Shown: positions 27,915-42,835, numbered from the stretch's first letter. The stretch is DNA of 64,000 bases from Candidatus Hydrogenedentota bacterium (GCA_034669905.1 JAXMOL010000036.1:1-64000), one strand, 5' to 3'. Numbers and translations: made by a program. The notes: generated by a model from the sequence alone, not told the origin.

Positions 27915-29360
27915 CTATTCGTAACGTTGCTTAAATTCTTCCATTCGCTGTTGGCGCTTGGCCTTTTCTTCTGGGTCCATGTCGCCATTGAACCAGCGGT
28001 GGTTATTGCTGCTGAGGACTTCTTCGATCTTCGCTTCCAGCACGTCGGCCGCATTGATTTTTTCCGGATCCTCGGAAGCCCGGCCTTTTTCAATCAGCTC
28101 TTCCAATTCGGGAATGAGCTTGGAGTAAAAGTGCTTGGCCACTTCATAGGTACCGTGCCAGTGGGTAATGTCCGGTCCCATCATGGAAGCGCCGTGGCGG
28201 GCACGGCGACCTTCGTGGTGCCAGAGCTCAAACCAGGTCCAATCGATCTTGTTACCGAAAGCCACCTGCTTCATGAGCGGCTTGGCGGCCGCCATCAGTT
28301 CCAGTCCCGGCTTGGCAAATTTGTCTTCATAGAGCTTAATCAACCCATCATACTGGGTGTAGAAGGCATCCACATAATTCTGATTGTGGCAATTGGTGCA
28401 GACATTCTGCATATTGGCACGGCGCACTTCCCAACTGACGTCTTTTCCGGGCAGCCCCATCTTGGCATCCGACACTTCGGGGCGAATCGATACGGGCGGC
28501 CGGTTGTTCCAACTGATCCGCATACCCACATCGTGGGTCACGGGTTGGTCCTTGGTGGCGCTCATGTGGCAGGTGGCACAGGTGGGTGCGGCGCTATAGT
28601 CTTCGCCCACGATCCACTTGGGACTGTCCATGTTCATTTTGTCTATATTGGCGCGGAAGGCCACGCCGTGTTTGGATTCGTTGTAAATCTCAATCTGGGG
28701 ATGGTCGGGGCCCATGTGGCACTTACCACAGTTTTCCGGATTCCGCACCTGCTCCACCGAAAACGCGTGGCGCGAGTGACAGGCCGAGCAAGAACCCTCC
28801 GAGCCATCGGGGTTTATACGGCCGATACCCGTGTTGGGCCAGGTGGCCGGGTCAAGACGCCCATCGTCCATGACCTTCACTTCGGAGCCGTGGCACTGCC
28901 AACAACCATTTACCGCCGCCGCCGAGATTCCCATGGGGAACATGGGCGTCACAAAATCGTTGTTGCCCTCCACGACTTCCGCCAGCACGTTGTCGAGGGA
29001 CCCGAGGATGCGACCGGCCTTGGCGTGGTGGGAAGCGACGAACTGCTCTACTTCTTTTTCATGACAGCGGGCACAGTCTTTGGGACTTACGATGGTGGCG
29101 ATCACTTCACCGTAGTGGTCGAAGGCATCGATGTCCTCTTTCTCGGCCTTGTGGCACTCGAAGCAGCCGATATTTCCCCGGAAGTGTTTGCTATCTCCCC
29201 ATTGCTCGTAGATAACCGGGCTCTGCATTTTGTGACACTCAATACAGGCCGCCGATTCTCCCGAAATCTCGGTCAACATATAACCTGCCGATGCGGGTAC
29301 GACAAGTAAGACCAGGGCGCTCCCGAGCAGCGCGCCTCGTATTCCGTATCGATGTTTCAT
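27915..29360 (-). CDS. Octaheme cytochrome c, hydroxylamine oxidoreductase (HAO) family, probably reductive epsilon-Hao-like type
   Basis: Signal peptide; 8 CxxCH (CIECH, CFECH, CARCH, CWQCH, CSACH, CGKCH, CATCH, CTNCH); CHSRHAF, GPDHPQIEIYNESKHG, GPDITHWHG. Confidence 0.85.
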   Translation of the reverse strand: MKHRYGIRGALLGSALVLLVVPASAGYMLTEISGESAACIECHKMQSPVIYEQWGDSKHFRGNIGCFECHKAEKEDIDAFDHYGEVIATIVSPKDCARCHEKEVEQFVASHHAKAGRILGSLDNVLAEVVEGNNDFVTPMFPMGISAAAVNGCWQCHGSEVKVMDDGRLDPATWPNTGIGRINPDGSEGSCSACHSRHAFSVEQVRNPENCGKCHMGPDHPQIEIYNESKHGVAFRANIDKMNMDSPKWIVGEDYSAAPTCATCHMSATKDQPVTHDVGMRISWNNRPPVSIRPEVSDAKMGLPGKDVSWEVRRANMQNVCTNCHNQNYVDAFYTQYDGLIKLYEDKFAKPGLELMAAAKPLMKQVAFGNKIDWTWFELWHHEGRRARHGASMMGPDITHWHGTYEVAKHFYSKLIPELEELIEKGRASEDPEKINAADVLEAKIEEVLSSNNHRWFNGDMDPEEKAKRQQRMEEFKQRYE

Positions 29361-30622
29361 TGCACCTCTCCTTCCCGTGCCACGGGCGTCGACAGTGCGA
29401 TGCCTTTTTCGTGACTGAATTGACCCGACATGATTGGAATAGCCACCCGCAGCATCCAGGAATACAGGAGTATTCCGAAGGCCCAGGCGCCCATACAGAT
29501 AAGCAATTCGTTGGTGGTGGGCAAATACTCCACCACATTTCCCAGGGGGGTCGGGATAAATCCCGGCACGATAAGCCCCATCCCCTTCTCGATCCAGACC
29601 CCTACAATGCAGAAGAAACAGGCCACATCAAGGTAACCCAGTTTTTTCCCCAAGGGGGTAATCAGAATGATCGCTGCGATGGCTTCCAAGGTGAGGGCGG
29701 ACCATATCCAGGGCACGAGGGCGTTGTAGGTATGCCCATGGTGCTCCAGGCCCTGCAAGAGATAGGTCATGGAAGCGCTGTGCAATGCTCCGGAGTAGTA
29801 CTCCTTGAACACTTCGCAGGAAAAGAGGAAAAGATTGATGAGCAGGGCCGTCGTAACGATATTCCGAAGCAGGTGGAGGCCCTTGTCGGGGATTTCGTAG
29901 GTAGAAACCCGACGGATAACCTGAAAGGCGAGGATCAGTATCGCCGGACCGGCCACAAAGGCCGAGCAGAGAAAGCGGGGTGCAATGATGGCCGCATTCC
30001 AGAAGGGACGTCCCACGAGGCCCACATAGAGAAAGGCGGTCACGGTATGAATGCTCACGGCCCATACGATCGCGATAAAGACAAAGGGAATATAGAAGAC
30101 CCAGGTGGGCTTGCGGTCATGGTATTTACAATAGAGCAAATAGCCACAGATGTGGAGGTTGAGCACGAGGTAGCCGTTGAGCACGATTACGTCCCATGAC
30201 AACAACGAGATGGGAAAATTGAACTTTCCGATGACCGGTATCAGGTGCCAGAACCGGTCCGGCCGCCCCAGGTCCACCGTGACAAAGATCAGGCACATGA
30301 CGATAGCAGAAATGGCGAGCAGTTCTCCGAAGAGCACCACGTCGTGCATTTCCTTGTTGCGGTAAACATAGGCCGGAATCACCAGCATCACGGCCGCGGC
30401 CGCCACGCCCACCAGGAAGGTGAAATTGGCAATGTAGGCCCCCCAGCTCACCTGGTCGGTCATGCCCGTGGTTCCGAGGCCGTTCACAAACTGATGCATG
30501 TAGGCATTGCCCCCGATGCCACACAGCACGGTGAGAAATATCATCCAGGCATAAAAGGCCGGCCCGCCCATGAAACTGAGCTTGCATGCCCGGGCCAGAA
30601 ATAGCAGATAATCTCTTAGCAT
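29357..30622 (-). CDS. NrfD/PsrC/DsrP-family quinol-interacting membrane subunit
   Basis: About 10 TM helices; VSWGAYIANFTFLVG, DLGRPDRFW, SIHTVTAF. Confidence 0.88.
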   Translation of the reverse strand: MLRDYLLFLARACKLSFMGGPAFYAWMIFLTVLCGIGGNAYMHQFVNGLGTTGMTDQVSWGAYIANFTFLVGVAAAAVMLVIPAYVYRNKEMHDVVLFGELLAISAIVMCLIFVTVDLGRPDRFWHLIPVIGKFNFPISLLSWDVIVLNGYLVLNLHICGYLLYCKYHDRKPTWVFYIPFVFIAIVWAVSIHTVTAFLYVGLVGRPFWNAAIIAPRFLCSAFVAGPAILILAFQVIRRVSTYEIPDKGLHLLRNIVTTALLINLFLFSCEVFKEYYSGALHSASMTYLLQGLEHHGHTYNALVPWIWSALTLEAIAAIILITPLGKKLGYLDVACFFCIVGVWIEKGMGLIVPGFIPTPLGNVVEYLPTTNELLICMGAWAFGILLYSWMLRVAIPIMSGQFSHEKGIALSTPVAREGEVQ

Positions 30623-30634
30623 GTGCCGTCGCCC

Positions 30635-31552
30635 TTATACATCAAAGTAATAGAAGAAGGCGGGAATAGTACCCGCTTCTTCCTTCAAGACATAGGTTCG
30701 CTTGTTCTGCACGATGTAGCGAATCTCACTTTCCGGGTCGTTAAGATCCCCGAATACCCGCGCGCCCGTGGGGCATACTTCCAGACAAGCGGGATTCTTC
30801 CCCTCCCGGGTGCGGTGCAGGCAAAAGTGGCACTTTTCCACCACGCCCGCAGGCCGAATCCGGTTGCTCAGATAGCCCATATTGGGGTTGATATCTTCTT
30901 TGGGAATCTCCGGTTTGGTGAAGTTAAAACGCCGGGCTTCGTAGGGACAGGCCGCCATGCAATAACGGCAGCCAATGCACCAGTTGTAGTCGATGACTGT
31001 CACGCCATCCGGCTCTTTCCAGGTGGCCTCCACGGGGCACACTTTGGTGCACGGTGGATTCTCACATTGCTGGCATTGGACCGGCAGATAGAATTTCCCC
31101 TCCTGGGGTACCTGCTCGTGGTCGTAGTTGTGGTCCGACTTTTCCAGATCAAAGGTACCGCTGGGCATCTCCAGTACCTTGATATACTGAATGGCCGGGT
31201 CACGGGACTGATTGTTTTCTTTCACGCAGGCCGTCACGCATCGACGCGAACCGTTGCAGCGACTGAGATTCAGGGCATAGGCAAAACGTACGCCCTTCTT
31301 CGGCTTCGGGTCTTTGATAGTAACTTTCGCGCCATAGTCCCGCCCGATTTCGCCCTCAAGGCGCGTGATGATACCCGCGATGTCCTCTTCGGAAAGTCGC
31401 TTATAGTGCTGCTGAAAGAATCCGTCCAGCGCGCCAGCCTTCATGTCGCGCAAGGGCGCCAGGGTGGCACCAATAGCGCCCGCAATAGCAACACCGGCCC
31501 CGGCTTTCAGGAAACTTCGACGTTTTACTGTCTGACGTTCTTCGTCTGCCAT
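30635..31552 (-). CDS. Tat-exported 4Fe-4S dicluster protein (NrfC/DsrO-like)
   Basis: KRRSFLK; CNGSRRCVTAC, CQQCENPPCTKVCP, CIGCRYCMAACP, CHFC...PACLEVCP. Confidence 0.88.
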   Translation of the reverse strand: MADEERQTVKRRSFLKAGAGVAIAGAIGATLAPLRDMKAGALDGFFQQHYKRLSEEDIAGIITRLEGEIGRDYGAKVTIKDPKPKKGVRFAYALNLSRCNGSRRCVTACVKENNQSRDPAIQYIKVLEMPSGTFDLEKSDHNYDHEQVPQEGKFYLPVQCQQCENPPCTKVCPVEATWKEPDGVTVIDYNWCIGCRYCMAACPYEARRFNFTKPEIPKEDINPNMGYLSNRIRPAGVVEKCHFCLHRTREGKNPACLEVCPTGARVFGDLNDPESEIRYIVQNKRTYVLKEEAGTIPAFFYYFDV

Positions 31553-31564
31553 CGAAAAAGTCCT

Positions 31565-32191
31565 TTAGTGGGGTGGATTCGCGCCCGCGGGCGCATGGGC
31601 TTCGGCTTCATCGAATCGGGTCGCAATGGTCGGTGGATCGGGGGCCATGGGCGCAAAAGCCGGCTGATGGGGATCATGGCATTGGATACACAACAGCTTG
31701 GTCCGGTTAGGATTGCCCCGCTCCCAGCTTCCATTCTGGCGACCATGGACACCCAACTGCCATTCCCGATAGGTGGGACCGTGACACTTGGCGCACAACT
31801 GGGCCGGTTGGTCCGAAGGAATGGGACTCCCATCGTGGGCGACGTAGGCGTTGCGGTCAGTCTGGTGGTGACAGTTGACACAGTAGGTGTTCATGCCATG
31901 GTCAAAGCGGGCGTCGATATCCGCGTGCTCGCCCTTGAGCTCGTTCTGACGGCGAGGACTATCGAAGTCGTTGTGACACTCCGTGCACTTGTATTCGAAG
32001 GAACCCCGACGTTGGCGCAAGGGACGCAAGGGCCCGCGGACCGGGGTGGTATCAAAGACCTCGCCGACCACCTCCCGCTCATACAGGGTAGACGGGTCCG
32101 GCACTTCGGTCGAACAGCCGGAAAGGACCACCAGCTCTCCCACGAGCAGGGTTACCCACGTAATGTTGCATACCCGGTTACGCCGACTCAT
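31565..32191 (-). CDS. Tetraheme cytochrome c lipoprotein
   Basis: Lipobox LSGC; CTECH, CVNCH, CAKCH, CIQCH. Confidence 0.82.
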   Translation of the reverse strand: MSRRNRVCNITWVTLLVGELVVLSGCSTEVPDPSTLYEREVVGEVFDTTPVRGPLRPLRQRRGSFEYKCTECHNDFDSPRRQNELKGEHADIDARFDHGMNTYCVNCHHQTDRNAYVAHDGSPIPSDQPAQLCAKCHGPTYREWQLGVHGRQNGSWERGNPNRTKLLCIQCHDPHQPAFAPMAPDPPTIATRFDEAEAHAPAGANPPH

Positions 32192-32411: not shown

Positions 32412-34559
32412 CTACCGATACTCATCTTCGATGGCTTCCCAGAATCCCGCTTTGAACTCCGACCAGGCCGACGGCTCTTCCTGCCACGATTGGTAAAGGG
32501 CGTCAAAGAACTCCTCGGTCATGGGGAATTTCGCGTTCCGTTCCACATATTCAACATGGCCGTCGAGGTAAAGCACATGGCCCCCCGAAGGCTGGTGGTA
32601 CCCCCACCATTCTATCAGTACCGGAACCTTTTCGGGGTTAGAAAGTCCGCTGTGGAGTCGGGGCACGTTGCCCGTTGCCGTGGGAATGCTTTCCTGGGCA
32701 ACAAAAGCTGCCCAATCCTCCTCTGCTGCTTCGCGGGATTCCATAAAGGCCGTCATTTCCGCCCGGTTTCGCACGGCGTAACCCAGATAGAGGTAATCGG
32801 CATCGTCAATAATATCTTCGTCCGTTTCCCCTTCGTAGCCGCCTTCCGGGCAGCGCAGTAGTTTTGGGTCAATCGACGACACCAGCCCCCCACCGGGCAG
32901 GAAGGTGTCCGGCGTCTCGGTAAGGGGCGGAAATTTACCCTCCGAACGGGCGCTGTAGGCCGCGAATGCCTTGGCGAGTTCATGGAGGTTGTGCTCACAC
33001 ATTGGACGACTTACCGCATCCGTCGCCCGGCGGACTCCCTCGAAAAACCGGTCGGTCATCGGAAATCTGCTGTCGTGTTCCAGGAATTCCACGTGGCCAT
33101 CCAGATAATACACATGGCCTCCGGACTCGTTGTGCAGTCCGCTCCATTCAATCAGCACCGGCACGCGTTCAGGCTCCGCAAGTCCTATGACGAGGGGCGC
33201 AAGAGGACCCTGGGGGCCCGGAATGGACCCGAGCGCCTGAAAGCGCGCCACATCGCCTGCTACACCCACATAGGCGTCCACGTATGCATCCATTTCCACG
33301 GCATTTCGGACGGCGTAGCCCAGATAAATGTAGTCACTGTCCTCCAGTATGTCCGCCGCAGTTTCGCCCTCATAGGCCATCGCCGGGCAACGCAGTCGCG
33401 TGCGGTCCACCGCCACTGCCGACGGCCCACCAAACAGAAAAGACCCGCCCTCGAGCGCCAGGGCAGGAAAATATCCCTGGTTCTGTTGCGCCGTATCCAA
33501 CAGTTGAGCACCCAGTGCGGCTATATTCTCGCGACAGGATTTCAGGTTACCCGCGCCCCACGCACGACCGGCGGACTCATAGAAGGCTTCGGTCACCGGG
33601 AACTGGCTGTTCAGCGCCAGGTATTCGGTGTGGCCATCGAGATAAAGCACATGGGCCCCATCGGGCTCGTGATAGAGGTTCCATTCCACCAATACCGGGA
33701 TAGTCTCCGCGTCGGGAAGATCGTTACGTAGCAAGGGGATTGGACCGGACGAGATGTTAATCTCGGCTCCGTCCATTCGCGGACTCAAATCCCCGCCTTC
33801 TTCGACATAGCTATCCATGAACTCATCCATCTCCTGCTGGGTGCGGATGGCGGCCCCCAGATAGATGTAGTCCGGATCCTGTCGAATGAAGTCTTCCGTC
33901 TCCTCTTCGTAGGCCAGGGACGGACAACGCAGCCAATGAATATTCAGGTTATCTACGAAATCTCCATGGAACAGCAGGGGGACTTCCGCGTCCGAACCGA
34001 GCCGTGGATAGTTTCCACCGTGCTGTCCGCTATACCCCACCAAGGCTCCGTGGAGGGCCGTCATATTCTCGGCGCAGGCATTCTTTTCCCCCGTTTCCTG
34101 CAACTGGATGATACCGGGGAGGATGGAAAGAAATGCCACGCCCAGCACTATGGGGACACAGATAAGGCTCACGACAATCATGGCACCCTTGCGGCTCGGC
34201 TTGGCCTTCGGGGCAACCGTTGGAATGGGGCGCGCGACGTGGGCCGCCAGACCGGGTGCTGGCTTCGGGCGGGTCGGAAGGGGAGGCGGCACGGGTTGGG
34301 CGCCAGTGGGCGGGAGCGGCGGTGGCGCGGTGACCTGGCCTTGCGCCACGATAGCCGCTGGACTCCCAAGGGACGCGAGCACCTCACGGGCAAGGGCCTG
34401 GGTAACCTGTTCTACCCCTGCCTGGGAAAGACGGGCCTGCACTTCCTTCTCCACCTCCGAAACCATTCCGTCGGCCCATACGCCTTGTGCCCTGCAGCGG
34501 GACCGGATCTCATCCAGGTAGCTTTGAAAGAGATGGCGCGCTTCGTTGGACCACTGCAT
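32412..34559 (-). CDS. Membrane protein: HAAS-like N-domain, Pro-rich linker, TM helix, three tandem DUF1559/H-X9-DG-like domains
   Basis: YLDEIR...LGSPAAI N-terminus; three ~180-aa repeats, each C..N(L/M/I)...LRCP...DY(I/L)YLG...PVL(V/I)EW..H....HV.YLDGH; GGAG upstream of ATG 34559. Confidence 0.75.
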   Translation of the reverse strand: MQWSNEARHLFQSYLDEIRSRCRAQGVWADGMVSEVEKEVQARLSQAGVEQVTQALAREVLASLGSPAAIVAQGQVTAPPPLPPTGAQPVPPPLPTRPKPAPGLAAHVARPIPTVAPKAKPSRKGAMIVVSLICVPIVLGVAFLSILPGIIQLQETGEKNACAENMTALHGALVGYSGQHGGNYPRLGSDAEVPLLFHGDFVDNLNIHWLRCPSLAYEEETEDFIRQDPDYIYLGAAIRTQQEMDEFMDSYVEEGGDLSPRMDGAEINISSGPIPLLRNDLPDAETIPVLVEWNLYHEPDGAHVLYLDGHTEYLALNSQFPVTEAFYESAGRAWGAGNLKSCRENIAALGAQLLDTAQQNQGYFPALALEGGSFLFGGPSAVAVDRTRLRCPAMAYEGETAADILEDSDYIYLGYAVRNAVEMDAYVDAYVGVAGDVARFQALGSIPGPQGPLAPLVIGLAEPERVPVLIEWSGLHNESGGHVYYLDGHVEFLEHDSRFPMTDRFFEGVRRATDAVSRPMCEHNLHELAKAFAAYSARSEGKFPPLTETPDTFLPGGGLVSSIDPKLLRCPEGGYEGETDEDIIDDADYLYLGYAVRNRAEMTAFMESREAAEEDWAAFVAQESIPTATGNVPRLHSGLSNPEKVPVLIEWWGYHQPSGGHVLYLDGHVEYVERNAKFPMTEEFFDALYQSWQEEPSAWSEFKAGFWEAIEDEYR

Positions 34560-34711
34560 CGATTCACTCCCCACGTTATCTGGATTGAGCGAGCGCGTGA
34601 TACGCCGAAACAGGCCGTGATGCACCGCACCCCCCATGTATGGTGGTGCCACTCCCTCCCCTATACTCCTGTGGAAATCCTACCGAATTCTGGCCCGAGA
34701 GACAAGCCCGC

Positions 34712-36160
34712 CTACTCCACCTCCGCAATGGCGACGGCGAGGGTCCGCGTTACGCCCGAGGCAGGCCGGGCGGCGGCCCAGTACCAACTGGCGGCGTCGG
34801 GCCAGGAGCGCACCCCGTCGGTCCAGTCGGAAAGGTCTCCCCCCTGGGCAATTACCACCGGGTCGACGCTAAAAAAACACTGCCGAACGGTAAATACACG
34901 GCCGTCGGGATGCACCGCGCGGAAACGGCTCCAGAGGTGGCCCTGCGGGTCTTTCCAGGCCGACAAGTTGCTGCAGTGATAGCCAAAGGCCCGGTAGCAT
35001 TCTTCCGTGGTATGGAGTGTCAACGTTGGCTCGCCGCACTGGCGCAACAAAATATTCCGACCACTTTCTTCCAGCACGCCCCGACTCCAATCGCCCAGAT
35101 AGCTTGCGCGAAAACGTTCCATGGCGGCATCAGGTGGGGTCTCCCGCCAGCGCTCCCCGTCCACCCGGATGGGCCACACCGCCTCCCCCACGCCCACGTG
35201 CCGCTGCTCCCGGGCGCTCAGCGGAATGGTGGCCGCCAACAGCCCCGCGACGAGCAGCATGCTATAGGTCCAGGGGCCGACCTTGACCGAATCAGACCCC
35301 GCGGGCCCAACCTTGGCGCGACGTTGGAGCCACAGGGCGGCCATGACGAGTAAGACGGCCGTGCCGCCGAATCCCGCGACGCCGATGCCGCTGTGCAATC
35401 CATCGGATACGTCGCCCTGACGGGAAAGGACAAACAACATGCTGACGCGGGCTGTATTCCCCACGAAGGCGAGCACGATTCCCAGGCACGCAAGCGCGAA
35501 GGTCGCCCCGCACCGCAGTTGGGTCAGCACCGACACGACGCCCACCAACAAGACCGCTATCCGCAGCATGCGCACCCCACTGCAGGGCGCGTCGATAAAC
35601 ACGGTGTGGGTACCGTCGGTCAGGCCGGCACCAAGGGGTTCAATGGTGCCACCGAGCACCCAGGAGGCCCCATGCCCCACGATTATCCGTAGGGGATAAC
35701 CGAAATAGGTGTTGAAGGCAATACCCAGGGGCAGGGACGCCCACATCCACAACAGCAGGCCCGCACTCTGCCTGCGGCGCGCGGGCGTCAGGGTCCCCAA
35801 CAGGCCAAAGGCCAGGGCGGACATGGCAAAAAACGAGGAGACCAGGCGGGGCAAGGGGCCGTAGCTTGCCGCGTAGCACAGGAGACACAGCGCGCAGGCC
35901 TGAAGAAGGGACCGGGATGGCGTCCGAGTATGGACGCGGTCCCCATAGACCAGACTGGCCCAGGTCCCCACTGCCGCGAGCATGCTCCAGAGTCCCGTCG
36001 TCGGATAGTCCGGGGCAAGCCATTGTCCCCAAAAGCGGTACAAAACGGCCCAGCAGGCCAGAAAAAGACCGAGCACCAGCGCGACGTTTCGGAGCGTCTG
36101 TATGGGCCATTCCGAAGGCGCTGCGCGGTCTTCTCCAGACCAGGTCGCGACGTTGCTCAT
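34712..36160 (-). CDS. Dedicated exosortase/archaeosortase-family protein with C-terminal periplasmic domain
   Basis: Multi-TM; Cys in IDAPCSG, Arg in GNTAR, His in LHSGIG; ATGA overlap with the upstream VIT gene. Confidence 0.85.
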   Translation of the reverse strand: MSNVATWSGEDRAAPSEWPIQTLRNVALVLGLFLACWAVLYRFWGQWLAPDYPTTGLWSMLAAVGTWASLVYGDRVHTRTPSRSLLQACALCLLCYAASYGPLPRLVSSFFAMSALAFGLLGTLTPARRRQSAGLLLWMWASLPLGIAFNTYFGYPLRIIVGHGASWVLGGTIEPLGAGLTDGTHTVFIDAPCSGVRMLRIAVLLVGVVSVLTQLRCGATFALACLGIVLAFVGNTARVSMLFVLSRQGDVSDGLHSGIGVAGFGGTAVLLVMAALWLQRRAKVGPAGSDSVKVGPWTYSMLLVAGLLAATIPLSAREQRHVGVGEAVWPIRVDGERWRETPPDAAMERFRASYLGDWSRGVLEESGRNILLRQCGEPTLTLHTTEECYRAFGYHCSNLSAWKDPQGHLWSRFRAVHPDGRVFTVRQCFFSVDPVVIAQGGDLSDWTDGVRSWPDAASWYWAAARPASGVTRTLAVAIAEVE

Positions 36161-38862
36161 GGCAGAGCCATCCGCTCCCGACGGGGCGCGATACGGGTGC
36201 GATAGACCACGAAACACACCGCAGCAAGCGCGACAATAATCAGGAGCCACTCCTCGGGTTCCGGCACGGCGGGCACGGCATTGAGGTCGGCCTCGTCGTC
36301 GAGTCCATGACGCTCGTATTGGGCCTTGGTTTCCAGGACTATCGCCCCACTCACCGGGGTTACAAGACGGCAACGTCGGGCAATCGTACTCGCAGCGTTG
36401 GCCTCCAGGGGCGAATGGGATTGCAGTAAGCCCATCACCTGGTCCAGTGCGGCGAGACGCACCAGATGAGAATTGGTACCGTGCTTGCCAGCCGCGCTAT
36501 CCGACTCCGTTTCGGCGAAGGTAAAGCGCGGCGTTCCCTCGGTGGCTGCCCCGGTCTGGACAATTCGAGCCACCGTGGCCTCCACAGAGTCCGTTACAAG
36601 GACCGGCACCACTTCCGTATAGGCGTCGAGGTTCTCCATAAACTGAACGACGCCCGGAGCCGCAGCAACAAGGTGGATACGCACGGACTGTCCGTTCCGC
36701 TTGCCCGATTCCAGGGCCTGGGTGAGCCGGTCTACGTTGCCGTCTTTCATGGGTTGGGGACCGTGGATGACGATGACTTCTCGTTCCTTCCCGTCGGTCA
36801 CTTCTCCGAGCGCCATGACCACACCACCCAACACGGGCTGTCCAAATTCGTAACGCTGCGCACCCAGCCATGCGGCGAGCCCATCACGTCCGCCCGCGCC
36901 ATCCCACACGGCCCCTTCTCCCCCCGCAAACACGGCGTGAAGTTCGACGCCATCAGGGATTGCCTGCAACAGGGCATGCCAGTCTATGCGGGCCTTCCCC
37001 ACGCCCGCGGAGCCATCGACGACCAGGCAGACCTCGCGCTTCTCGGCCAGGGACTGGATTCCGTCGCGTTGCATGGTGGCCACATAGCGACCGAGGGCCC
37101 CCTGGTGGGGCGCGGTATCGAAGACACGAGGCAGAGACAAGAGCGCGCCTGCACCGTTGCCGAAGAGTTCTCGCTGGCGGATGGTGCCGAGTTGATTCAC
37201 CGTACCTGATTCATTGCCCGGCGTGTTGAGCGAGGCATTCGTGAGGATTACGGCTCCCGGACTGGTGATATTGATCCCATGGGGCAGTCGGTCGGACAGG
37301 GTAAAGTTTTCCGAAGCGATGAAGGGCAGGCGGTAATAGGCGCGATCCCCCTGGCCATGGAGCGGCGCGGTGATGCCGATTTTTACTTTCATCTGGCCAA
37401 AGGCGGGCACAGGAAAGCATTGGAGGAAAACCTGGTCACGTCCGGCGGAAGTGAGGAGGGCCGGGTCGCGCCGTTGGACGATGGCCACTTCTTTATAGGC
37501 AGCCTTCACCTGGCTGCGCCCACCAAAGGCGGCTTCCCGCTCTTCGCCATTTATCCATAGGGTCAGCCTACTCGCGACGCCGCCAGGAGGCAGGGCAATA
37601 AGGCAGCGGGCTTCATTGGCGATGGGGTTATTGTTGTCGAATTCGAGTATCCACTCCGTATAGCTTAACCCCTGGGCCGCCATGTCTTCGCCGGAGAAAT
37701 CCACATTCATGGCACTCTGAATCAGTGACAGATTGGGAATCATGCTGCCTACCCGGTCACCGCCCTGCTCCCAGCGAAGGCGCAGTTGGGAGCCGAAGTG
37801 GTTGTCCAGGTAGAACCACGACGTGAGGTCCTCTTGCGTGGGGACTTCGCCATAGACGCGAAAGTAGGCCTCTTGCAGATCGGGCGCACGCGTTGCTCTC
37901 AGAAAGCTTCCCCCCATCCAAATATCCGCTATACCATCCGAACGACCGTAATAACGGGACATGTCGGGCATCCCCAGCCACCGCAACGCGGCCATGGATT
38001 CGGCCTGTTCCGCGGGCTCTCCGCGGAGGAGTTGCTCGAGGTGGTGATCACGTGAAAACTGAAGGCCTACATACCCGCCAAGCAAGACCATCACGAAAAA
38101 TCCCCCCGCCCAAACCCAACGAAAATACGTACGGGAATGAACGCCGTCGTACTGACCGCCAGCCTCTAATCGTAAGGTCGCATGACAGGCCAGGACCAGC
38201 GTAATCGCCGGCGACAAACCAATCAACCCGATGCCAAACCAAATGATGGCTATCAGGGAAATCGGCATCAGGGGTAGAAGCAAGATGCTGTAAAAGAAGG
38301 ACATTCCAAAGAGGTAACCCAGCCCGAAGGCCACCGCCCGCCGTGTGCTGAGTTCCTGTTCCGCCGCCGGAGTCGAAGACTTTATCAAGAGATAAAGAAA
38401 CCACGCGGGCACCCCGAGCAACAAGATAACATGGAGAAAGGTGGGCATGACGCCCACGCCGCCGCCCCACGTGCCATTCATCAAACTAAACTCGGTCCCC
38501 ACGGCGACAAGAGGGAGCAAGACCCCAAAGATAATCGTCAGTGGAGCGTTCATTGCAATAGGCGGCGCCTTCGCATCAACGGGATTCGTCCCGTGCGCGC
38601 CGTTGCCGTTGCTTGGGGCCGTTGCCGCCACGGGCGTATCGACGCCGACGACGTCATAGGGCGTTCCGGCGGCGGCGAGGGCACGCTCCAGGTTCTGGGG
38701 AGTAACCACGCCGCCCGCACTCTCCTCCGCATCGCTCCGGATGTGGGCCCGCAGGTCTTCCAGGAAGTCTTCCGCGCCATCGTCCTGCGTCTGGGCGACG
38801 GCGAGCACTTCGTCGAGGTAGGCCGCCAGCCGCTCCTCCGCTTCAGGTGTCCAGTGTTTCAC
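36157..38862 (-). CDS. HAAS-TM-VIT-vWA protein with PEP-CTERM-like sorting signal
   Basis: YLDEV...LEDLRAHI...AGTP N-terminus; ~5 TM; VIT (EARCLIALPPGGVASRLTLWING.EREA, RRDPALL); vWA VVDGS; VPEPEEW-hydrophobic-RTR C-terminus. Confidence 0.85.
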   Translation of the reverse strand: MKHWTPEAEERLAAYLDEVLAVAQTQDDGAEDFLEDLRAHIRSDAEESAGGVVTPQNLERALAAAGTPYDVVGVDTPVAATAPSNGNGAHGTNPVDAKAPPIAMNAPLTIIFGVLLPLVAVGTEFSLMNGTWGGGVGVMPTFLHVILLLGVPAWFLYLLIKSSTPAAEQELSTRRAVAFGLGYLFGMSFFYSILLLPLMPISLIAIIWFGIGLIGLSPAITLVLACHATLRLEAGGQYDGVHSRTYFRWVWAGGFFVMVLLGGYVGLQFSRDHHLEQLLRGEPAEQAESMAALRWLGMPDMSRYYGRSDGIADIWMGGSFLRATRAPDLQEAYFRVYGEVPTQEDLTSWFYLDNHFGSQLRLRWEQGGDRVGSMIPNLSLIQSAMNVDFSGEDMAAQGLSYTEWILEFDNNNPIANEARCLIALPPGGVASRLTLWINGEEREAAFGGRSQVKAAYKEVAIVQRRDPALLTSAGRDQVFLQCFPVPAFGQMKVKIGITAPLHGQGDRAYYRLPFIASENFTLSDRLPHGINITSPGAVILTNASLNTPGNESGTVNQLGTIRQRELFGNGAGALLSLPRVFDTAPHQGALGRYVATMQRDGIQSLAEKREVCLVVDGSAGVGKARIDWHALLQAIPDGVELHAVFAGGEGAVWDGAGGRDGLAAWLGAQRYEFGQPVLGGVVMALGEVTDGKEREVIVIHGPQPMKDGNVDRLTQALESGKRNGQSVRIHLVAAAPGVVQFMENLDAYTEVVPVLVTDSVEATVARIVQTGAATEGTPRFTFAETESDSAAGKHGTNSHLVRLAALDQVMGLLQSHSPLEANAASTIARRCRLVTPVSGAIVLETKAQYERHGLDDEADLNAVPAVPEPEEWLLIIVALAAVCFVVYRTRIAPRRERMALP

Positions 38863-39220
38863 CGGCAGGTCCCCTTTCGATCAGGCCGTTTACGCCTGCT
38901 TCAATATCTTTCCAACAGCGGTTCATCATTTCCCGTGCCCGCTCCCCTGCGGGACTCAGCCGGTAATACTTCCGCACCGGACCGCTCGGTGACTCTTCGA
39001 TGCGGGTTTCCAGGAGGCCACTTTTTCGGAGACGGGATAAGAGTGGGTAGATGGTCCCTTCGGTGACGACCACCCCCCGGATGGCAGTGACCCGTTTGAC
39101 CAGGTCATAGCCATAGAGTTCCCCCTCGGCGAGCAGATTGACGATACACAGCTCCAGCAGGCCCTTGCGCAACTGGGTCGTCCAGTTGCTCAGATTCAGC
39201 TCGTTGTCGGAGGTCGCCAT
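38843..39220 (-). CDS. PadR family transcriptional regulator
   Basis: QLRKGLLELC, YGYDL, EGTIYPLLSRL, GPVRKYYRLS. Confidence 0.92.
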   Translation of the reverse strand: MATSDNELNLSNWTTQLRKGLLELCIVNLLAEGELYGYDLVKRVTAIRGVVVTEGTIYPLLSRLRKSGLLETRIEESPSGPVRKYYRLSPAGERAREMMNRCWKDIEAGVNGLIERGPAGETLDT

Positions 39221-39255
39221 GAATTTCGTCCGTGTTAGGGGGCATCGCTATGCGG

Positions 39256-39305
39256 TTACACCAAGTACCTTGCATTACACTATAGCAAAACTTCGTGGGT
39301 GTCAA
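39256..39305 (-). promoter_or_regulatory. Putative sigma70 promoter of the padR operon with overlapping repeat operator
   Basis: Minus strand TTGACA (39305-39300) - 17 bp - TAGTGT (or extended TGcTATAGT); GTGTAA repeated 19 bp apart across -10/+1. Confidence 0.55.
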
Positions 39306-39694: not shown

Positions 39695-42600
39695 CTAGTC
39701 CCTCATCACCACCACGCCGGCGACGCCCTGGGGTGGCAGGGAGCCCAACAAGACGGTTGCATCGTCGAGGGAATCCAAGGTCAGGGGCACTCCGTCCACG
39801 AGGGATGTGACGGACTTTCCGTCGGCATCGGGCAGGGCGAGCAAGGGCCCGGCAACGCTGCGGTCATTGGCGTTGTAGAGGGTGTAAAGGACGTTCCCGT
39901 CGTGGGGGAAGGCGTTGGCATAGACCCCCTCGGCCAGGGTGTCGATATGAGGCGTGGCATCGGCACTCCGGAAATACCGTCCAAATTTCTGGTAGATAGG
40001 GTAAAAGTCCCCCGCCTTTTCGCGGAAGCTTTCGCTGTACCACGAAGCTCCCCGCCCTTTGAGCCAGAGGCCCATGCCGTGGAAGAAGGCCAGCTTGAGG
40101 TCATCCTCTTCGGCGGGGATGGGCCGAATTCCGTGGGCCACCATTTCGAAGACGGGAATACTCGGCTGGAGATAGCGGTGCAGCGGGAGTTTGGTCGGTC
40201 CCATGGGATGCATGGTGTGTTTCATCCCCAGGCTAAAGGCACCATCGATGTAGGGCGTCATGGCGTCGCAGGGGATGTGCTCGATATAGATGGCGCACTC
40301 GGGCCGCACCTTGTCGAGTTCCGTGCGAATGCGCTTCAGCAGCGCGATTTCGGTTTGAATGGGGTTGGAGGGCACGGGATGGTCGTGGTTCGCCGACCAG
40401 CATTCCTTGCTCACGTCACAGATACCCAGTTGGTCCACGTAGACCGCATCCGCCTTGGAAACCCGGGCCACTTCGGCGATATCGGCGGCGAGGGCGTCCT
40501 GCCAGCCTTCGGCACCGGGACAGCAGAAGAACTCCATGTCACCCGGCCACCACGCCGGCTTGTTTCCGCCGCGAATGAGCTGCCATTCGGCAAGCCCCTG
40601 GGCGGCGTTTCGTGCCCGTTTGTCGAGGAGGTAGCCTTCAAAGTACAGGCCCACCTGCACCCCCTTGGCGTGGGAAGCACGGATGCCTTTGCCCAGCGCG
40701 TCGAGCCCGCCGAGATCGTTGGTCGTGTAGGTGCCTACCCGGCCCACGGCTTCATTGTAGGCCCAGCCCGAAATATCGACCATGTCCACCCCACCAAAGG
40801 CCCAGCGCGACTCGGCAATGAGCTTTTCAAAGGAGTAGGCCGGTTTCGCCACATCAAACAAATAGCTCGTGCCGCCCAGGGGATAGTCCCGACGACAGTA
40901 GAAGAGGTCGTCCATGGTATTGGGACGGCTCCGCGGAAAAGAACGGCGCACCCAGTCGCGATAGACTTCGAAGGGGCCATGCCAGTCGCCCTCATGGGGC
41001 AGCAGCACCGTCGTGGGCAGGGTATGGTGGGCACCGGGTACCAGTTCCAGCCGCCGGTAGGTGACCGCCATTTCGCTTTCACCCGACGCATCGTGGTTAA
41101 AAGAAAACCACTTTCGCTCGAGGCTGTCATCTTCCACGATACAGGCGAGGCCACCACCTGCGGTGCCATCATAGACATCCATCAGCTGATTGGGATAGCG
41201 CCCGCCGTAGACTTCCGACAGGGTCACGGGCCGGGTATCCATCATGGTGCTTCGGCCACCGAGCACATAGGCCGGAGCGCCTTCGTTGCCCACACGGAGG
41301 GAACGCAATTGGGGGAAGACGACATCGGGCTTCCAGGTCGTTTCTCCACGATTCGTCAGGGTGGCGGCACATTCCAGTCCCCCGTCTTTTCGAAGGCGGA
41401 GGGACACTTCACAGTGGAGGTCCCCTTCGCCCACTTGCCAGAGGACCACTAATTTGTCTTTCGTGGGCACCCGGAGGGCATCCAGGAAGGTGAGGGGCAG
41501 GACCGCATCTTCGTCCCCCATGATCTGAATAAGGGGCGTGCGGGCCTCGTGGATAATCTCCTGTCGGGCCTCACCCAGTTGCAGCCGGTGTACTACGCCC
41601 TGCCGGTCCATCACCAGGCGCAGGGAAGGCCCCTCGATAATCAGGGCATCCTCGGGTATGGTGCCAGTCGGCGCTGCTTTGACGAAGGCAGGCATGGGCG
41701 TTTCCTCTTCGACGGTAGCGTTGTTGTGGTCCACCCGGGAGGCCGCCAGCAGGACCACCTGGCCAAAGGACATCCCTTCGGTCAGCCGAATGGACGCTAA
41801 CTCGGCTCCCGGCCTTACCGGAACGGTATAGGCCCCTAAACCAGGTTGCAGTCCGGTTTTTCCGCTGTCCGCGTGACGGGGGAGCACTTCTTCCTTTTGA
41901 CCATCCGCATATACCAGGGTGACTTTAAACTGGTGGGCCAGGGGCGCATGACGCCGGGCCACGAAAGAGCCCTTGGAATACCAGGCCTGGCCACTTCCCC
42001 AGAGTCGGGTGGCACACAGGAATGCCAGGGTGTTGCCCGTGCCTGCAGCCTCCAAGGTCCATTCCCCCGAAGCATCGAGGGGCGATGGGACGGCGTGATT
42101 GCCCAACAGGAAGGGGTGCCCCCCCACCATGACCGCCCCGTGAAGCGCCGGGTCCAGCCCGTAAAATCGACGGACCGCCTCCTGTCCCACTTCGCCTTCC
42201 TGGGGCAAGGCCAAGGGCGTATAGGCCAGGGCTTCCTCAACGGGCACAATTACCGGAAGCGTCACGACCTCCGACTGGGGCTGGGCCAGAAAGGCCAGCT
42301 GATTCAGACGCAGCACGACCGGTTCATCGCCGCTCTGCACGGTAATGGTGATTTCCCCGACCCGTTCCAGGTTGTCTACGCCAGCCAGGTCGATGGTATC
42401 GATGTGCAGCCCCGCGGTGAACGTGCCACAGTCGTAGCGACCACCACTGGCCAGGGGATTCTCGGTATTGGTCGCACCCGGCGTTATGGGGCCCGTGGAG
42501 CCATCGAAGAGGCCAAAAGGCGGTGGCGCGTCGGCAGGCACCCCACCTTCGACGAAATAGGAGGCCGCCAGGGTGGCGAAGGGGTCCATCCAAAGGGGTT

Positions 42601-42835
42601 CGGTGGTCAGGGTCCATGCCATGGCGCGGTGGGGCTCAGTGATAACGAAGGCCAGCACCCCATCGACCTCGACAATCATCGCGTCGGGATCCGGGCTCTC
42701 CACCCGCCAGCCTTCCATCGCCCAACGGGCCTTGTCGACCCGGGCGAAATCGGTGCTGTGGCTGAGGAGCCGGTCGTCTGCCCAGCCGGGCAAGGTCAGG
42801 AGACAAAGCAAGAGAAAGGATAGTAAAGCGCGCAT
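39695..42835 (-). CDS. Large secreted putative glycoside hydrolase (DUF6259-like TIM barrel)
   Basis: Signal peptide; HEGDWH..FEVYRDW, GVQVGLYFEG, ADAVYVDQLG, HDHP. Confidence 0.6.
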   Translation of the reverse strand: MRALLSFLLLCLLTLPGWADDRLLSHSTDFARVDKARWAMEGWRVESPDPDAMIVEVDGVLAFVITEPHRAMAWTLTTEPLWMDPFATLAASYFVEGGVPADAPPPFGLFDGSTGPITPGATNTENPLASGGRYDCGTFTAGLHIDTIDLAGVDNLERVGEITITVQSGDEPVVLRLNQLAFLAQPQSEVVTLPVIVPVEEALAYTPLALPQEGEVGQEAVRRFYGLDPALHGAVMVGGHPFLLGNHAVPSPLDASGEWTLEAAGTGNTLAFLCATRLWGSGQAWYSKGSFVARRHAPLAHQFKVTLVYADGQKEEVLPRHADSGKTGLQPGLGAYTVPVRPGAELASIRLTEGMSFGQVVLLAASRVDHNNATVEEETPMPAFVKAAPTGTIPEDALIIEGPSLRLVMDRQGVVHRLQLGEARQEIIHEARTPLIQIMGDEDAVLPLTFLDALRVPTKDKLVVLWQVGEGDLHCEVSLRLRKDGGLECAATLTNRGETTWKPDVVFPQLRSLRVGNEGAPAYVLGGRSTMMDTRPVTLSEVYGGRYPNQLMDVYDGTAGGGLACIVEDDSLERKWFSFNHDASGESEMAVTYRRLELVPGAHHTLPTTVLLPHEGDWHGPFEVYRDWVRRSFPRSRPNTMDDLFYCRRDYPLGGTSYLFDVAKPAYSFEKLIAESRWAFGGVDMVDISGWAYNEAVGRVGTYTTNDLGGLDALGKGIRASHAKGVQVGLYFEGYLLDKRARNAAQGLAEWQLIRGGNKPAWWPGDMEFFCCPGAEGWQDALAADIAEVARVSKADAVYVDQLGICDVSKECWSANHDHPVPSNPIQTEIALLKRIRTELDKVRPECAIYIEHIPCDAMTPYIDGAFSLGMKHTMHPMGPTKLPLHRYLQPSIPVFEMVAHGIRPIPAEEDDLKLAFFHGMGLWLKGRGASWYSESFREKAGDFYPIYQKFGRYFRSADATPHIDTLAEGVYANAFPHDGNVLYTLYNANDRSVAGPLLALPDADGKSVTSLVDGVPLTLDSLDDATVLLGSLPPQGVAGVVVMRD

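Follow-up and report, generated by a model that had tools for sequence, protein, structure and literature searches.

The window analysed here is a stretch of 64,000 nucleotides from a Candidatus Hydrogenedentota bacterium (GCA_034669905.1 JAXMOL010000036.1:1-64000), whose closest named relatives belong to Candidatus Hydrogenedentota. Four genes, padR, a gene for a 901-amino-acid (901-aa) protein, an exosortase gene and a fourth gene (gene 4), all lie on the minus strand between positions 32,412 and 39,305. The first-pass annotation of this DNA had placed the four co-oriented genes rightly; it overlooked that the gene 4 product is pilin-like, spans the membrane once and carries three H-X9-DG repeats, and that a conserved operator precedes padR. 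The features are listed below, with relatives cited by locus (L) and genome (G) handles.

39279..39305, minus strand: promoter-like element, TTGACA and TG-n-TATAGT separated by a short spacer of 15 nt; the same layout occurs in L001, L002 and L007.
39264..39286, no strand assigned: predicted PadR operator, a 23-bp palindrome, gnTAcnTTGnantnCAangTAnc, overlapping the -10-like element.
39247..39269, no strand assigned: weak second operator copy in tandem, scoring 8.0 bits in the window; the corresponding sites score 20.0 bits in G003 and 22.1 bits in G004.
38843..39220, minus strand: padR, a small (subfamily-2-like) winged-helix regulator of 125 aa (PF03551, 69.6 bits, cut-off 27, E 2.3e-19).
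36157..38862, minus strand: gene for the 901-aa receptor (HAAS, five transmembrane (TM) segments, VIT, vWA, PEP-CTERM), with a GTG start and a 20-nt overlap with padR.
38644..38862, minus strand: HAAS head, residues 1-73, with three helices and a GTP kink; predicted PadR contacts F33, D36, L37 and H40.
38059..38547, minus strand: membrane bundle, residues 106-268, with five predicted crossings and one short re-entrant helix, oriented with the N-terminus inside and the ectodomain outside.
36271..37740, minus strand: inter-alpha-inhibitor-like ectodomain, residues 375-864, comprising VIT, vWA and a helical tail.
36160..36267, minus strand: PEP-CTERM variant tail, with VPEPEEW, a membrane helix and a basic end.
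34712..36160, minus strand: exosortase gene (PF09721, 53.9 bits, cut-off 25.7).
32412..34559, minus strand: gene 4, 715 aa, 152 nt past the exosortase stop.

The locus has the tested marks of both a HAAS-PadR dyad and a dedicated exosortase system, and it is a member of no named exosortase subfamily. Dyads of HAAS and PadR-like winged helix-turn-helix (wHTH) proteins were described by Ravi et al. (2024; PMC11237479), and Listeria LltR-Lmo0600 is an example (PMC6624303). Such pairs have been proposed as a widespread alternative to two-component signalling. As in those dyads, a standalone small padR, the best solved relatives of which are small PadR proteins, lies directly 5′ of a gene whose membrane-protein product begins with a three-helix HAAS head that has a GxP kink, and autorepression is probable.

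Domain profiles gave weak scores for the 901-aa protein of the window itself. VIT reached 22.3 bits against a cut-off of 26.5, a profile scan of the whole protein returned no HAAS, vWA or PEP-CTERM match, and the head scored 15.4 bits against PF22564 (cut-off 27), which several homologues in the phylum exceed. In a scan of 49 relatives at E ≤ 0.05, VIT was found in 49/49, PEP-CTERM in 24/49 and HAAS in 18/49, and 34 of 42 isolated heads matched HAAS at E ≤ 0.1 (best 2.4e-9). The model of the protein has a predicted local distance difference test score (pLDDT) of 84.5 and forms head helices at residues 6-23, 30-48 and 55-65, followed by the GTP kink, the G and P of which are kept in 37/42 and 30/42 heads, respectively. 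It also shares the whole VIT and vWA architecture of human inter-alpha-inhibitor heavy chain 1 (PDB 6fpy; Foldseek E 1.3e-17) at 10% identity, with residues 375-864 aligning at Z 15.3 and a root-mean-square deviation of 7.5 over 417 aligned positions, and with a vWA fold at about residues 600-774. Therefore, the HAAS, VIT, vWA and PEP-CTERM assignments, which had been made from the sequence alone together with about five TM segments and the VPEPEEW tail, hold at the family level and by structure despite the weak single-protein scores.

The canonical metal-ion-dependent adhesion site (MIDAS) motif is DxSxS ... T ... D, and inter-alpha-inhibitor heavy chain 1 is a secreted protein, not a membrane-bound one, with a canonical metal site. 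The site in the window family differs from it, reading D616-G-S-x-G (D-G-S-A-G in the window) with G as the commonest residue at the last position (28/49) and an invariant H700, and the window protein is altered further by P676 where the family has D. Judged from its residues, the window vWA lacks the canonical MIDAS. The family-mean number of Lys/Arg residues is 1.8 before TM1, 3.3 after TM2 and 3.1 before TM5, all inside loops, compared with 0.14 in the outside loop after TM1 and 0.12 in the outside stretch before the PEP helix. This bias, together with the model helices, argues for five membrane crossings, of which plain hydropathy recovers four, with the head inside and the ectodomain outside.

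Relatives were gathered by a scan of species-representative genomes, which gave at least 677 confirmed relatives, and the best 80 of these were used. Across the 71/80 loci scored for head and padR (nine with short flanks were left out), padR lies 5′ of 40/42 headed proteins and of 0/29 headless ones. The complex of the two partners was predicted from two PadR copies (42-row alignment) and the 73-aa head (42 rows), each with its own alignment. The complex scored 0.64 and the best control 0.01, with runs agreeing in at least 94% of contacts and a partner pLDDT of at least 84; the score mark is reached by 116/157 solved and 2/215 mismatched pairs, counts that are only rough for this job. In the model, head residues 33, 36, 37, 40, 64-67 and 70-73 make contact with PadR at its YGY motif, at the recognition helix (EGTxYPxL) and at the wing, which the consulted part of PMC3506622 names as the DNA-binding surface, with helix 3 as the recognition helix. 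Since the predicted contacts fall on this surface, binding of the head and binding of DNA would exclude each other, and the model suggests that the head masks the recognition helix and acts as an anti-repressor. PMC11237479 proposed a GxP groove, with which the predicted interface is consistent; the interface includes the GxP region to which that work pointed and adds a binding face. The contact residue H40 is present in 41/42 VIT heads and, in a wider set from the phylum, in 52/52 heads directly after padR, whatever their body; the padR-adjacent head of L042 has Arg at this position. A comparison of the head profile with PDB sequences gave no match under E 0.1. The complex model, the co-occurrence with padR and the topology together support the proposal of the first-pass annotation that one and the same protein, anchored at both ends, is the substrate of the sortase and the HAAS partner of PadR.

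Several points weigh against the capture of PadR by the head. The custom alignments and the PadR dimer fall outside the calibration of the complex tool, any basic DNA-binding face might attract an acidic helix, and conservation on the PadR side gives no separate support for the interface because these residues are conserved for DNA binding anyway. Heads without padR were found in L008 and L070, and kin are not independent: the independent pairs on well-supported branches number three, all in the same direction and short of significance. Moreover, the direction of the switch is inferred, and the part of PMC12419801 consulted has PadR released on signal.

The palindrome at 39264-39286 is the top site in the 7.4 Mb genome (26.1 bits; next 19.3) for an operator matrix of 21 sites from which the window and its close kin were left out, and the motif recurs 5′ of related padR genes. 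A consensus promoter scan made no call at the promoter-like element 39279..39305 and called 39399-39370 instead. In Listeria, repression by LltR of the HAAS operon that encodes it amounts to 100-150-fold (PMC6624303, in the sections available). As the palindrome overlaps the -10-like element and LltR represses its own operon, PadR likely represses its own operon through the predicted operator. The genome has 24 sites above 13 bits and four PadR genes, which may share similar operator sites. A look-up of RNA runs listed none.

We give a probability of roughly 0.6 to a reading in which the operon is self-repressed, the HAAS head caps the PadR recognition helix as an anti-repressor, the exosortase matures the outer tail, and gene 4 lies outside the switch. 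PadR would bind the palindrome over its own promoter and repress the operon. A signal at the VIT/vWA ectodomain would then pass through the five-helix bundle and expose the head, and the exposed acidic head would capture PadR via its DNA-recognition helix, so that the operon is induced.

The head could instead hold PadR at rest and release it on signal, and the signal would then shut down the operon or other genes instead of inducing them. The class is so worded in PMC11237479 (section 28) and in the accessible text of PMC12419801, and one-to-one coupled translation of padR and receptor, whose genes overlap or are separated by −20 to +7 nt in 38/41 loci, would allow standing capture. We consider such a release improbable, as the related Listeria repressor is active at rest, with 100-150-fold derepression in the mutant according to the available part of PMC6624303, and the window genome has no strong second target, the next site scoring 19.3 against 26.1 bits. 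The masking model bears on this question of direction, since publications word the mechanism as release on signal, which does not obviously agree with the genetics of Listeria, where the operon is repressed at rest. It is very unlikely that PadR only keeps a membrane protein from reaching harmful amounts, with the head counting copies and no outside signal involved. Over-expression of the HAAS membrane protein Lmo0600 does harm Listeria in the cold (PMC6624303, same sections), and the vWA metal-site motif is degenerate, the more so in the window protein with P676 for D, but a repressor-masking head would give positive, not limiting, feedback, and many different ectodomains are found on the same head, as expected of sensors.

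The exosortase assignment is secured by PF09721, by TIGR04178 (44 bits, cut-off 23) and by a Cys-Arg-His triad, with C193 and R238 each kept in 34 and H256 in 33 of 35 aligned rows; these residues had already been picked out from the sequence, as had the ATGA overlap (36157-36160) by which its start is coupled to the stop of the 901-aa gene. Filing the enzyme as XrtN, XrtQ or XrtT was rejected because all scores are under the curated cut-offs (XrtT 71.4 of 250, XrtQ 60.5 of 270, XrtN 28 of 200), and its best relative reaches 176.8 of 270 against XrtQ. By these scores, it is an unnamed subfamily nearest XrtQ/XrtT. Its fused C-terminal domain, which is a separate gene in many relatives, is distantly EpsI/DUF3485-like: PF11984 (EpsI/DUF3485) matched the domain in 1/8 proteins under the cut-off and not in the window enzyme, and 16-17% of the members of its atlas neighbours at 0.95 have PF11984.

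Enzyme and tail go together across relatives. In the 72/80 loci scored (eight were left out), an exosortase is next door to 32/34 PEPE tails and to 2/38 other tails, both of them PEPH; the search used a profile from the relatives of the window enzyme and may miss unrelated exosortases nearby. L031, whose tail is of PEPG type, lacks the exosortase, and its sisters have PEPE and the enzyme. By pattern, the window genome has 24 PEP-CTERM-like open reading frames (ORFs), 23 of which are ordinary, and the window protein is the only one of PEPE type. A separate general exosortase (196.6 bits) is encoded elsewhere in this genome. The adjacent enzyme, the private PEPE tail and the general exosortase elsewhere therefore indicate that the pair is dedicated, and an enzyme adjoining a single target with a distinct tail corresponds to a dedicated sorting system as defined in the consulted parts of PMC3237569 and 10.1101/2023.06.07.544157, with cleavage itself predicted. 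Against this pairing, L061 and L071 have a PEPE tail without an adjacent exosortase, and the independent tail-exosortase pairs on well-supported branches number two, short of significance.

Polytopic VIT proteins with a PEP-type tail beside their own exosortase are known from the XrtN-system VIT protein (TIGR04477), MSEP-CTERM (TIGR04286) and exosortases Q, T and N (NF012182, NF033770, TIGR04476), the last of which also share an EpsI-like partner domain, fused or split. However, the window target scores 153.7 against TIGR04477, under the cut-off of 250. On profile scores, the window pair is a sister subfamily to the XrtN/XrtQ/XrtT systems, here with a HAAS head and padR. The bacterial homologues of vault and inter-alpha-trypsin-inhibitor proteins (Haft and Varghese, 2011; PMC3237569) likewise include VIT/vWA proteins with swappable sorting tails of the PEP-CTERM, GlyGly-CTERM or LPXTG kind, and a dedicated sortase adjoins some of them. 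The accessible part of that work mentions neither a membrane bundle at the N-terminus nor a HAAS head nor a regulator.

The head itself is modular. It was found in 43 of 135 genomes of the phylum, and most of the matches listed were taken, giving 76 distinct heads. The 49 heads first counted directly after padR carry a VIT body (15), an H-X9-DG body (10) or another or truncated body, including ankyrin repeats (24), and three further heads follow padR with an 83-nt overlap (52 in total). At the same genomic position as the window operon, G003 (L103:3803-5197, G003:C1) has padR and the tandem operator followed by a VIT-type head on a gene-4-type pilin-like body; its head groups with VIT heads (95/99) and its body with gene-4 bodies (96/95), and the 16-kb stretch contains no VIT gene and no exosortase. 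Both this fusion and the unrelated bodies after padR argue that the switch needs no sorted substrate.

The exosortase would recognise the PEPE-x-W tail and remove or replace the last helix. Cleavage cannot shed the 901-aa protein because the N-terminal bundle holds it; the protein would thus stay in the membrane, with the far end of the ectodomain freed or re-tethered as a standing maturation step. The PEP tail is kept in 79/79 complete relatives, headed or headless, and the 64 scorable loci include seven with padR and exosortase, 29 with padR alone, 23 with exosortase alone and five with neither. As the tail is present in all relatives and the exosortase occurs with or without padR, processing belongs to the ectodomain, and it looks like maturation rather than the signal. 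In the survey of neighbourhoods, padR goes with the head, but an exosortase is beside only 7/36 padR loci.

The first-pass annotation had suggested that exosortase processing could control PadR, and a regulated cleavage or transpeptidation, in which a cut or re-tethered C-terminal anchor shifts the pose of the ectodomain and hence the capture of PadR, has points in its favour. Target and enzyme are translationally coupled (ATGA), tail and enzyme form a private pair, and every complete padR-coupled VIT relative has a PEP tail, which a general exosortase may process where no dedicated one adjoins. The suggestion is nonetheless weakened by the universal tail, by the 29/36 padR loci without an adjacent exosortase of the window-enzyme family, and by heads on pilin-like, ankyrin and other bodies. 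Headless relatives keep tail and exosortase without padR in 23/64 loci, so that processing serves the ectodomain without a switch, the switch is also found on unrelated bodies, and on the tree the head does not change together with the exosortase (three pairs only). We thus regard processing as the regulated step as unlikely and favour maturation of the outer tail.

Gene 4 encodes a single-span protein with a diverged HAAS-fold head, a Pro-rich linker, a pilin-like membrane helix, which is plain in one-repeat orthologues, and three H-X9-DG repeats (TIGR04294, 37.6 bits, cut-off 19). The repeats and the preceding helix are those of prepilin-type H-X9-DG/DUF1559 (SBP_bac_10) proteins. However, 47 of the 63 H-X9-DG pilin-like ORFs in the genome carry a prepilin-type motif, whereas gene 4 gave no profile match to the prepilin cleavage/methylation motif and has the HAAS-fold head and Pro-rich linker in its place. 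A whole-protein model had no Foldseek match at E ≤ 0.001 and no match of Z ≥ 8 in a wide search, where weak pilin fold matches had Z of 5.5 and 5.2, and no clear solved fold was found for the H-X9-DG pilin-like domain in the whole-protein search. Within the genus, the number of H-X9-DG repeats ranges from one to three, and at L109:704-3475 (G005:C587) a gene-4 orthologue is followed by two more H-X9-DG ORFs with Pro-rich linkers.

The resemblance that had been noticed between the N-termini of the 901-aa protein and gene 4 goes beyond chance (hhalign probability 97.5, E 7.7e-12), and the model gives the gene-4 head the same predicted fold. Among gene-4 orthologue heads, W4, A8, V53 and L62 are kept in 12/12 and G66 in 11/12, whereas 0/12 keep D36, L37 or H40, a mark that comes from the present analysis and not from the literature. 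The window gene-4 head has E, E and V collectively at the D36, H40 and L37 positions and R for E44, and Arg occupies position 40 in 7/12 heads. The matrix scan found no operator before gene 4 in the window or its relatives, and in G001, G004, G006 and G008 a distance of 1.0-5.0 kb separates gene 4 from the exosortase, with an ORF on the opposite strand lying between them in two of these genomes. Direct adjacency of all four genes was seen only in the window and G007, and the four-gene layout was rejected as a conserved unit on this ground. From its residues and position, gene 4 likely does not signal to the window PadR, and the simplest history on an unrooted tree is that it is likely a former second receptor whose head changed partner.

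The proposal that a second HAAS receptor feeds the same regulator is thus not supported for the window gene 4 but fits elsewhere in the phylum. In G035, G107, G108, G094 and G084, a second or third receptor lies within 2 kb after padR, and 6/6 of these tandem heads keep H40, three of them on an H-X9-DG body; by gene order and residues, real multi-receptor, single-repressor padR operons exist there. The loci are L146 (G094:C6), L135/L147 (G108), L136/L149 (G035), L139/L148 (G107) and L177 (G084).

One finding speaks for a continuing role of the gene-4 head: among close orthologues, it is 81-86% conserved compared with 67-81% for the ectodomain. A head conserved above its ectodomain is therefore under selection for something, and plain decay of gene 4 was rejected for this conservation. 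Gene 4 might accordingly be a working second input to the window PadR or tune the first receptor by pairing of heads, and it has a homologous head of the same predicted fold, follows the operon after a gap of 152 nt in which no terminator was called, and has intact-head H-X9-DG counterparts after the padR operons of G035, G107 and G108; the padR-adjacent L042 head also has Arg at position 40, as in the 7/12 gene-4 heads. Such an input is doubtful in view of the lost H40, D36 and L37 contacts, the lack of an operator and the distance of gene 4 in four relatives. Moreover, phylum heads without H40 also tend to be without a nearby padR, as 9/14 heads with no padR in the fetched stretch also have no H40, and we retain the reading that gene 4 lies outside the switch. 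The HAAS-fold heads of L172, L174, L175, L176, L178, L179 and L180 have R, T or Q for H40 and no padR in the fetched stretch, and three of them are fused to PspC. Heads of this kind possibly form a class of orphan heads with another partner.

The bodies named in the available text of PMC11237479 are PspC, Toastrack, FtsX/MacB, FtsW/RodA, VanZ and unnamed proteins with 2, 4 or 6 TM segments. The words 'VIT', 'vWA' and 'sortase' do not occur in that text, nor 'VIT', 'VWA' and 'exosortase' in one supplement, and the binding mode is not shown there. No paper joining a HAAS-PadR dyad with a dedicated exosortase was found, and within the searchable literature the combined architecture is undescribed, as first supposed; subscription papers were mostly outside this search, as was the 2012 survey of exosortases by Haft, Payne and Selengut, where a description of the headless VIT pair may exist. 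Among the works listed on anti-repressors and DNA mimics, titles and abstracts contained nothing on HAAS.

The locus offers a compact test system, with a soluble head of 73 residues, a repressor of 125 residues, a 23-bp site and named residues (H40, D36), for which the gene-4 head is a natural negative control and G003 a natural domain swap. The unnamed exosortase subfamily, with its one-residue tail signature, would be useful for studies of substrate choice. A bolder and rather doubtful extension is that HAAS heads are, class-wide, membrane-tethered DNA mimics whose acidic helix (E32/D36/H40/E44) plugs the PadR recognition helix, and that the private exosortase re-tethers the C-terminus of the inter-alpha-inhibitor-like sensor to lipid or an envelope glycan via a PEPE-x-W code, the state of the tether being reported to transcription. 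If true, DNA-mimic heads would supply the mechanism so far missing for HAAS-PadR pairs as a class.

Other observations concern the surroundings of the operon and its relatives. Upstream, the window encodes a 1046-aa protein with a DUF6259 domain (39695-42835), and a similar ORF lies 5′ of padR in G003. Directly downstream on the minus strand (27915-32191) are genes for multiheme cytochromes c, an iron-sulfur protein and a polytopic membrane protein, a cluster that may resemble an NrfD/Act-type complex; its homologues also follow the operon in G001, G004, G006 and G008. Elsewhere in the same genome (G000:C67:1925-5208), a second padR is followed by genes for two HAAS proteins over the Pfam cut-off. 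At L110:4681-7413 (G010:C30), one in-frame TAG before the VIT body sets the HAAS head apart as a short ORF of its own, which is either a real split or an assembly error. Several Acidobacteriota loci (L017, L023, L031, L063 and L069) have a second VIT/vWA gene, divergently placed, some 3 kb 5′ of the headless one.

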